40,788 nt of DNA from a virus (UHGV-1354494), one strand, 5' to 3'; positions 28,853-28,967 are shown, counted from the first letter of the stretch. Notes: generated by a model from the sequence alone, not told the origin. Numbers and translations: made by a program.

Positions 28853-28967
28853 GACACGCGGGAAAGACCGCGCAGGACACACAGGAAAGACTGTGCGAGA
28901 CACGCGGGAGAGACCGTGCGAGACACGCAGGAGAGACTGTGCAGGACACCCGGGAAAGACCGGTGAA
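28853..28967 (+). repeat. Five tandem 23-bp units GACACrCrGGArAGACyGyGCrr, each a short stem-loop, in the leader of the scaffold gene.
   Basis: Directly visible tandem units at 28853, 28876, 28899, 28922 and 28945. Stems vary with compensatory changes (CGCGG/CCGCG versus CACAG/CTGTG) around a GAAAGA/GAGAGA loop. Confidence 0.8.

Follow-up and report, generated by a model that had tools for sequence, protein, structure and literature searches.

A tandem array of GARAGA-loop hairpins in the scaffold and capsid leader of virus UHGV-1354494

The DNA of virus UHGV-1354494 that we analysed (40,788 nucleotides (nt), hereafter the window) carries at positions 28853-28967 five 23-nt units that follow one another head to tail without spacers, each of which folds into a small hairpin with a GAAAGA or GAGAGA loop (GARAGA). 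This array makes up the whole untranslated leader between the gene of a Prp-like protease and that of a scaffold-like protein, the major capsid gene being next. Here we describe the structure, strand, position and conservation of the hairpin, together with its wide distribution among other phages. Compensatory changes in related genomes favour the view that the units are structures under selection, as RNA of the sense strand rather than as DNA dyads or a packaging (pac) site. The reading that we prefer, plausible if somewhat short of probable, is that the array acts in cis as a leader RNA module, the loops of which would be read by a conserved factor, and that it protects or insulates a scaffold-capsid mRNA initiated inside the late operon.

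An earlier note on this DNA had reported five tandem 23-bp stem-loops at this place; the unit sequences quoted there are exact, and both the repeat finder and the folds agree with it. Tandem Repeats Finder placed the repeat at 28851-28962, with 4.9 copies at period 23 (score 133) and 2.4 copies at period 46 (score 161), the higher score of the longer period showing that CGG-type and CAG-type units alternate. Folded alone (-6.3 to -9.7 kcal/mol), each unit forms a GC stem of 4-5 base pairs (bp) that ends in a G:C closing pair and carries GAAAGA or GAGAGA as its hexaloop; GAC flanks the stem on its 5' side in all five. Unit 1 (GACACGCGGGAAAGACCGCGCAG, 28853-28875, +) pairs 28857-28861 with 28868-28872 (CGCGG/CCGCG) around GAAAGA at 28862-28867 (-9.7 kcal/mol, z = -3.9). 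Two G:C to A:U double changes separate it from unit 2 (GACACACAGGAAAGACTGTGCGA, 28876-28898, +; -7.1 kcal/mol), where the stem 28880-28884/28891-28895 (CACAG/CUGUG) encloses GAAAGA at 28885-28890. The loop is GAGAGA in unit 3 (GACACGCGGGAGAGACCGTGCGA, 28899-28921, +; stem 28903-28907/28914-28918, CGCGG/CCGUG; loop 28908-28913; -8.2 kcal/mol) and in unit 4 (GACACGCAGGAGAGACTGTGCAG, 28922-28944, +; stem 28926-28930/28937-28941, CGCAG/CUGUG; loop 28931-28936; -6.3 kcal/mol), and GAAAGA (28954-28959) again in unit 5 (GACACCCGGGAAAGACCGGTGAA, 28945-28967, +; -7.7 kcal/mol), which has a stem of 4 bp (28950-28953/28960-28963, CCGG/CCGG), or of 6 bp with a bulged C. The description of the units as 5-bp stems was therefore right in form and needs amending for units 3 and 4, with one G.U pair each, and for the 4-bp stem of unit 5. 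The sequence of unit 5 is near-identical to GACAGCCGGGAAAGACCGGC, a hairpin of unrelated phages, and its 3' end runs into the Shine-Dalgarno (SD) sequence of the scaffold gene.

The fold of the entire leader (28816-28985) is a succession of local hairpins at z = -6.0, and none of 200 shuffles folded as well. On the two strands of the window, stems of 4 bp or more carry a GARAGA loop eight times, as the five units and three others, against 0.6 expected from shuffles. We define the motif as a 5' GAC about 9 nt before the loop, a stem of 4-5 bp closed by G:C and a GARAGA loop, in sense orientation and intergenic position; every one of these features is present in 5/5 window units. A covariance model was built from 96 units, the five of the window included, and in the window it matched three units at 30.7-35.8 bits (unit 1, 35.8; unit 3, 30.7; unit 5, 34.8; E ~1e-7 to 1e-9), the two units between giving truncated matches of 12-15 bits. 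Outside the array, the sole window site at E < 0.1 is a stem-loop at 10515-10530(-), with 16 bits and E = 0.008. It is an isolated exact copy of the stem-loop CCGGGAAAGACCGG that falls inside the coding part of a large serine recombinase gene (10027-11625, -), lies in sense to that gene without the 5' GAC flank and may be due to chance. The units are contiguous, with a period of 23 and no spacers, and are not a CRISPR (clustered regularly interspaced short palindromic repeats) array, as had been stated before. A coding role was likewise rejected: a stop codon stands directly upstream, there is no start codon with an SD, and the periods in relatives are mostly not multiples of 3.

The exchange of CGCGG/CCGCG for CACAG/CUGUG stems, to which the earlier note had drawn attention, is real, but it is in part the product of a duplicated two-unit block (period 46), so that some of the covariation within the array does not represent independent events. 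Support for selection must therefore come from other genomes and lineages, and it does. Across 96 distinct units, 86.7% of the cells of the five-pair helix are paired compared with 73.1% in shuffles (0/500 reach the observed value), and control registers slid by 1-3 columns gave 15-46%. Double changes occur at four of the five pairs, in 75 cells against 31.6 expected. With the search open to every R/Y combination, pair 2 was G:C in 77 units, A:U in 11, G.U in 3 and A.C in 0 (Fisher p = 8e-12), and pair 4 was G:C in 29, C:G in 20, G.G in 0 and C.C in 2 (p = 3e-12), both p-values being computed as if the units were unrelated. The double changes arose in several separate lineages, with the stems AUAG/CUAU, GUAG/CUAC, CCCG/CGGG, UCCG/CGGA, ACCG/CGGU and CUCAG/CUGAG, and these compensatory changes bear out the proposal that structure is under selection. 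One lineage of 22 units keeps a U.U mismatch at pair 4, and the secure part of the stem is thus 3-4 bp plus the closing pair.

The stems covary, and there is hardly any variation in loop, closing pair or GAC flank. Even with the loop left free in the search, it was GAAAGA in 91 cases, GAGAGA in 24 and GATAGA in 3, with 4 single-base variants and 2 unrelated loops. At the inner pairs G.U or U.G was found 12 times and A.C or C.A once, an asymmetry which neither double-stranded DNA nor the opposite strand would give and which points to RNA of the sense strand. Of the two alternatives offered earlier, RNA hairpins or DNA dyads, the former are thus favoured and the latter are not, because the orientation is strictly sense, most periods are multiples of neither 3 nor the helical turn, G.U is tolerated and A.C is not, and the invariant loop is asymmetric.

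Relatives were collected by protein-guided and pattern-guided searches of IMG/VR and GTDB genomes, and we distinguish arrays before scaffold genes (class 1) from hairpins in unrelated contigs (class 2). Every relative whose scaffold is at least about 48% identical has the array hairpin immediately ahead of the scaffold start, and the hairpin also precedes several more distant Prp-type scaffolds, with homologues down to <30% identity (L001-L052, L044, L076-L149). The copies in a class-1 array number 2-5 and without exception lie on the + (sense) strand; periods are 22-32 nt, apart from one interrupted spacing of 124 nt. The linkers vary in length and sequence and the hairpin cores are kept, across modules with <50% protein identity. 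Only a few nt separate the last hairpin from the SD in all class-1 lineages. A relative with a 99% identical scaffold (L001) has four units against five, unit 1 being absent. Lacrimispora and Clostridium species are the hosts named in the genome records of the relatives. Relatives without the array or without covariation had been named beforehand as grounds for dropping the proposal, and the relatives carry the array with compensatory changes.

Two other arrangements, one a leader and one an array, were noticed. In a group of distant modules (L054, L056, L058, L059, L063, L067-L069) the region some 100-200 nt upstream of the scaffold start holds another common leader, composed in order of a -10-like TGATACGCT, the anti-SD-like GUCCUCCUG, a long GC hairpin, one or two small hairpins (loop GCCNUNAAG or GGCGAAACA) and the SD; it looks like a separate regulatory leader family. 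In IMGVR_UViG_3300032241_003019 (L146), about 3400-3600, there is a long array of units of ~15-20 nt that alternate between CGGGAGAGACCGCG and CGGGTTCGACCGCG; this is a different tandem array, with the GAGAGA-loop hairpin partly common to both.

Unrelated contigs also gave matches, to GAC(G/A)GCGGGAAAGACCGCUGACAGCCGGGAAAGACCGGC, in a scan for two-hairpin patterns; repeats coding for collagen-like Gly-X-Y were discarded as false positives of the DNA pattern. The exact 20-mer GACAGCCGGGARAGACCGGC (hairpin UGACAGCCGGGARAGACCGGCA), from which unit 5 of the window has three differences, is present in at least 120 IMG/VR contigs. Among the matches listed, to which the class-2 counts given here refer, there are 114 unique contexts with a G+C content of 0.33-0.70 and unrelated flanks, which have in common only U at -1, A at +1 and a depletion of G at +2 to +4. 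From the common flank, closing pair and loop we judge that class 1 and class 2 represent one motif. Its cultured carriers are phages of Escherichia, Klebsiella, Cronobacter, Pantoea, Xanthomonas, Stenotrophomonas, Pseudomonas, Acinetobacter, Planktothrix and Synechococcus. The gene downstream of a class-2 hairpin is on the same strand in 60/69 contexts with a called gene. In 26/153 occurrences (L164-L309) a transfer RNA (tRNA) gene, of one of many isotypes, starts 2-8 nt after the hairpin; cultured examples include NC_049463 Pokken and NC_017981 DIBBI, and the hairpin is also found inside tRNA arrays. Several of the 'tRNAs' that follow it are odd, with ARAGORN giving two-base anticodons. Elsewhere a class-2 copy is followed by a start codon at a distance of 20-30 nt, or immediately by an intrinsic terminator.

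E. coli phage mEp390 has a single copy in its leftward early operon, after the repressor gene and followed by a long stem and a terminator; a second, nutR-like copy was looked for in this phage, and none was found. In DIBBI and ESP2949-1 the hairpin is located in the long gap before terS. We also noticed a block of ~80 nt, comprising the hairpin and an upstream variant CGGGAAAGGUCG, that is near-identical in mEp390 (L154 2440-2522) and Xanthomonas phage DIBBI (L156 1818-1900); it overlaps the annotated small open reading frame gp36 in the former, and a tRNA-like sequence follows it in the latter.

The array occupies a non-coding gap, and its position directly before the scaffold and capsid genes is as the earlier note had it. 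Upstream is the gene of a Prp-like cysteine protease (28468-28815, +; stop TAA 28813-28815; Pfam PF04327 Peptidase_Prp, E = 1.9e-14; phrog_4478). The first downstream cistron is the scaffold-like gene (28979-29884, +; 301 amino acids; phrog_13908, E = 2.8e-76), the product of which begins with MKIKINLRLFDGEGG, including a Prp-type cleavage motif, and has 56 homologues, some fused to Prp. It sits between the portal and Prp genes and the second downstream cistron, the major capsid gene (29899-30891, +; Pfam Phage_capsid_4; phrog_1357, E = 1.6e-89; N-terminus ...LNLRLFDGAP). The SD of the scaffold gene, read from the sequence, is GAAAGGAG at 28965-28972 (+), 6 nt before the ATG at 28979, and the hairpin of the last unit ends 2 nt before it; across lineages the last stem is 2-6 nt from the SD. 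All unpaired bases of the array are purine-rich.

Between the protease stop codon and the array there is an extended -10-like element, TGATAACAT (28827-28835, +), of the pattern TGnTAnnnT and preceded by aG in a TRTG-like -16 region, and a second -10-like hexamer, TATCAT (28839-28844, +), read from the sequence and matching TATAAT at 5/6 positions. TGnTAnnnT, often with TRTG before it, is the extended -10 of the Gram-positive type. It was found, often after TRTG, in 19/23 tabulated class-1 leaders, at 11-15 nt from the first stem in most lineages and at 20-26 nt in seven, the window (22 nt) included; one lineage has a perfect TATAAT at this position. In the window TGATAACAT lies 8 nt further upstream than usual, and TATCAT is at the usual distance, ending 13 nt before the first stem. 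These elements suggest that TGATAACAT/TATCAT may act as a promoter and, as they stand just upstream of the array, that a transcript starting inside the late operon probably has the array at its very 5' end.

According to the preferred reading, transcription would start at this internal promoter a few nt before unit 1, and the hairpins would fold one by one on leaving the polymerase. The leader would end 2 nt before an SD that is unpaired, flanked by purines and so kept free. The stems would need only to pair, and the loop, closing pair and GAC flank would be read sequence-specifically by a trans-acting factor, not encoded beside the motif and probably a conserved host component. The outcome would be a protected and insulated 5' end for the two most abundant head proteins, hence a long-lived and well-translated mRNA, with the number of hairpins serving as a tuning knob. 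That such a factor exists, what it is and which way the effect goes are inferences, as is the promoter. Two of the roles proposed in the earlier note, a stabiliser and a binding platform, may be considered plausible. A third, a ribosome standby site, was not supported: duplexes of the loop with the anti-SD (of an assumed 16S 3' tail sequence) reached -4.9 to -6.9 kcal/mol compared with -6.4 for a purine control and -12.7 for the true SD GAAAGGAG against a Firmicute-type 16S 3' end, and anti-SD pairing by the loop, whether as pseudo-SD, STAB-SD or standby site, was rejected as no better than the control.

Several observations weigh against this reading. A plain stabiliser would need no invariant loop. 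At class-2 sites, which lie before tRNA genes, in early operons and before terminators, the role of a 5' stabiliser is not obviously needed; the pre-tRNA and pre-terminator contexts are the main facts that it explains poorly. Directly upstream of class-2 copies TAnnnT is only about twofold enriched, with no sharp -10 peak, and a simple sigma-70 scan gave no promoter at the array leader, because there is no -35 element. More distant scaffold modules have small hairpins of other types in the corresponding position, the loop containing the SD in some of them, and in the Prp-scaffold fusion lineage no leader hairpin was found there, so that the GARAGA hairpin is dispensable for the module; the scaffold leader appears to be a recurrent control point at which this hairpin is one solution among several. 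Finally, no binding factor was identified. No phage protein co-occurring with the motif emerged from the neighbourhoods by BLASTP, and the whole genomes of the window phage and three complete Proteobacterial phages have only the CI-like repressor family in common, a negative that in itself agrees with the preferred reading; a partner, if there is one at all, would then belong to the host or escape BLASTP.

Other readings must be set against this one. The hairpins could form a translational operator, to which free scaffold or another head-module protein would bind cooperatively, blocking entry of the 30S subunit and so matching scaffold synthesis to assembly. Autoregulation of the P22 scaffold is known and counts for such an operator, as do the closeness of the last hairpin to the SD in every class-1 lineage (2-6 nt), the specific binder implied by the invariant loop and the multiple copies, which suit an oligomeric binder. 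Distant scaffold lineages with other structured leaders, some with the anti-SD-like GUCCUCCUG or the SD in a loop, would fit a general control point. We nevertheless consider an operator unlikely, since the same hairpin is present before tRNA and early genes in phages that lack this head module and have no protein in common with the window phage except the CI-like repressor, and since the hairpin type does not track scaffold phylogeny. A nut- or put-like element, by which the nascent hairpins, alone or with a host factor, would load RNA polymerase for read-through of the late operon, would account for the promoter-proximal, sense-oriented position, for the single copy of mEp390 before a long stem and intrinsic terminator, and for the copies upstream of terS, before untranslated tRNA arrays and directly before terminators; the all-purine loop resembles boxB, and RNA polymerase is a partner conserved across phyla. 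We think this improbable too, as no + strand terminator-like site was found in 24-36 kb of the window and no boxA-like sequence (CGCUCUUUA-like) in 28800-28853, mEp390 has one copy and not a left/right pair, and HK022 put is a 70-nt, two-stem RNA of another shape. In addition, the tight abutment to an SD or tRNA is not needed for antitermination, and action on the polymerase by a 20-nt hairpin alone would be unprecedented.

The fixed, close position relative to the downstream RNA, 2-8 nt before a tRNA in the 26/153 cases above and just before the ribosome-binding site in others, would also be expected of a punctuation signal beside which a conserved endoribonuclease cuts, freeing the scaffold-capsid mRNA or the tRNA and leaving a hairpin-capped end. 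The conserved flanking U and A, the depletion of G at +2 to +4 and the hairpins inside tRNA arrays are in keeping with processing, which we find distinctly unlikely all the same: no nuclease of such specificity is known, RNase III and minihelix recognition by RNase P call for longer stems, and class-1 arrays appear to have their own promoter, making processing unnecessary. It is quite improbable, in our view, that the hairpin is a decoy or sponge, abundant copies of which, carried on strongly expressed transcripts, would soak up a regulator of the host that binds RNA, or else a toxin or defence protein, perhaps by mimicking a ribosomal RNA (rRNA) loop. For a decoy speak the rarity of a motif that nevertheless crosses phyla, its varying genomic position, its often tandem and polymorphic copies, some of them small hairpin-plus-terminator units, and the precedent of the pseudo-ToxI repeat expansion of phage PhiTE. 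The loop with its closing pair, GGAAAGAC, is moreover identical to positions 2056-2063 of E. coli 23S rRNA (rrl, L163), the segment around A2058, where a GAC also stands just upstream; we treat this as a lead only, ~0.14 such 8-nt matches being expected by chance. The CR-I segment of RNase P RNA, GGAAAGUCCGG, is similar as well. No target for a decoy is known, and class-1 arrays differ from accessory anti-defence cargo in their vertical inheritance and in keeping to one fixed place in the head module.

Least credible, and in our judgement very improbable, is an element that works as DNA (iterated sites for terS or pac, for a late regulator or for a replication protein) or a neutral tandem duplication without function. 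Direct repeats near packaging genes, and a period-46 duplication with a change of copy number that indicates recent slippage or unequal recombination, would suit either. Compensatory stem changes are unexpected for half-sites in double-stranded DNA, and the strictly sense orientation, a spacing of 22-32 nt that ignores helical phase, the 12 to 1 asymmetry of G.U over A.C, and hairpin cores that are kept across modules with <50% protein identity while the linkers drift all argue for RNA. The same strand specificity, covariation and asymmetry, together with the distance of ~3.8 kb that separates the array from the putative terS gene upstream, leave the pac-associated role suggested in the earlier note, and a terS-binding role, unsupported.

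The preferred reading has precedents in the 5'-terminal stabilisers (the leaders of E. coli ompA and B. subtilis aprE and ermC, the SP82 stabiliser and the cryIIIA STAB-SD), in which stable hairpins at or near the 5' end of strongly expressed mRNAs are closely followed by an open ribosome-binding site; as with these, 5'-end-dependent decay by RNase J or RNase E would be expected to be blocked by the array. The known stabilisers require structure only (or an SD-like sequence, for STAB-SD), whereas here the loop, closing pair and 5' flank are invariant across phyla. Unlike them, moreover, the unit is iterated up to five times and precedes tRNA genes as well, and its loop is no better than the purine control at the anti-SD. 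Lambdoid nut boxB is similar in its short GC stem, all-purine GNRA-like loop and sense, promoter-proximal position, and the mEp390 copy lies in an early operon before a terminator; it differs in being a pentaloop, in contrast to the GARAGA hexaloop on a 4-5 bp stem, which has neither boxA nor an identifiable N protein and occurs in tandem, abutting the SD. HK022 put, an RNA that binds the zinc-binding domain of the RNA polymerase beta' subunit, has ~70 nt and consists of two long stems with bulges (PMC9378689). Identity with put was rejected, the array units being 20-nt hairpins with 4-5 bp stems.

Tandem tiny hairpins with covarying stems, invariant loops, a closing G:C and a variable linker just upstream of the SD are also the hallmark of mini-ykkC (guanidine-II riboswitch). 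Membership in that class was ruled out by the GARAGA loops (not ACGR), the 1-5 copies (not exactly two) and the lack of an Rfam match; the SD is not sequestered here, and the genes served are those of phage proteins and tRNAs. As in CsrB/RsmZ and CsrA-regulated leaders, short hairpins with a conserved purine motif are iterated and the last site is beside the SD, which itself contains GGAG. Unlike in CsrA sites, GGA is not within the loop and straddles the stem-loop junction (closing G and first two loop bases). The motif is moreover present in cyanophages, the hosts of which are not known to have CsrA. The coat-protein operators of MS2 and PP7 and P22 scaffold autoregulation give a precedent for post-transcriptional self-control, the former by a hairpin placed at a structural gene's ribosome-binding site; our hairpin excludes the start codon and the SD, and it is not restricted to phages that have this structural module. 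Phage genomes are also known to hold short non-coding repeats that are conserved and vary in copy number, either where genes start or as tandem arrays: the SAS/ESAS of mycobacteriophages, the PeSL cassettes of T4-type phages and ToxI/pseudo-ToxI. SAS/ESAS and PeSL are specific to a phage cluster or host, and ToxI units are pseudoknots of 34-45 nt followed by a toxin gene, unlike the GARAGA motif, a hairpin of 20-26 nt spread across phyla with no toxin gene following. A type III ToxI-like array was ruled out by the period of 23 nt, the lack of a terminator after it and the nature of the next genes, scaffold (phrog_13908) and then major capsid.

Leader hairpins are elements of a known kind. What sets this one apart is the invariant GARAGA hexaloop with its 5' GAC, the arrays of up to five, the spread across phyla and the attachment to tRNAs, a combination described in none of the resources searched. 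Rfam 15 gave no match overlapping the hairpins at E <= 10 (window 28000-30000) or at E <= 1 (17 motif-bearing loci), megablast and blastn of the array region against 50,697 phage records found nothing, and a full-text literature search by sequence and keyword returned no relevant description of the hairpin. A wider proposal, somewhat unlikely in our estimation, is that the GARAGA hairpin is an unrecognised portable RNA module of phages, placed singly or in arrays before capsid-scaffold mRNA, tRNA arrays and early operons and read by a factor conserved across bacterial phyla. This factor could be RNA polymerase, a protein that processes RNA or associates with the ribosome, or a mobile defence protein; in the last case the hairpin would serve as a decoy, possibly by mimicking the 23S A2058 loop.

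How one late operon yields hundreds of copies of scaffold and capsid against a dozen portals is poorly understood outside a few model phages, and a defined, mutable leader offers a direct handle on this ratio of head proteins in gut Clostridia phages. Furthermore, a hairpin of 20-26 nt with an invariant loop in phages of Firmicutes, Proteobacteria and cyanobacteria, often 5' of tRNA genes, implies a broadly conserved step of RNA recognition, either in the conflict between phage and host or in the expression of phage genes. Should its action not depend on the host, the hairpin could serve as a portable expression part.

Some further features of the window were recorded. Upstream of the array lie the putative terS gene (24496-25068), the large terminase gene (25013-26536, +) and the P22-type portal gene (26546-28471, +). 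The N-termini of the scaffold (MKIKINLRLFDGEGG, 28979-29026) and of the major capsid protein (MKNELLTLNLRLFDGAP, 29899-29961) have in common an NLRLF|DG motif that resembles the Prp cleavage site of ribosomal protein L27, and the phage has its own Prp gene (28468-28815); in a relative with a fused Prp-scaffold the junction reads DLQMF|ADGG (L310, about 4310-4340). There are two in-frame coding repeats: one at 29033-29073 (12 nt x 3.4) encodes (AGS)n in the N-terminal linker of the scaffold, and another at 31762-32144 (84 nt x 4.6) encodes Ala/Thr/Ser-rich repeats of 28 amino acids in a 647-residue open reading frame (31177-33120). The open reading frame at 33333-33956 (+) has a C-terminal domain similar to Tad2 (Thoeris anti-defence 2; E = 1.7e-21), and that at 1150-9225 (+), of 2691 amino acids, takes up one fifth of the window. 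In addition to the large serine recombinase (10027-11625, -) there is a tyrosine integrase, which adjoins a rolling-circle replication protein of the REP_ORF2/G2P type just upstream of the packaging genes (open reading frames 21691-22737 + and 22882-23718 +); with two recombinases and such a replication protein, the window element may be composite.

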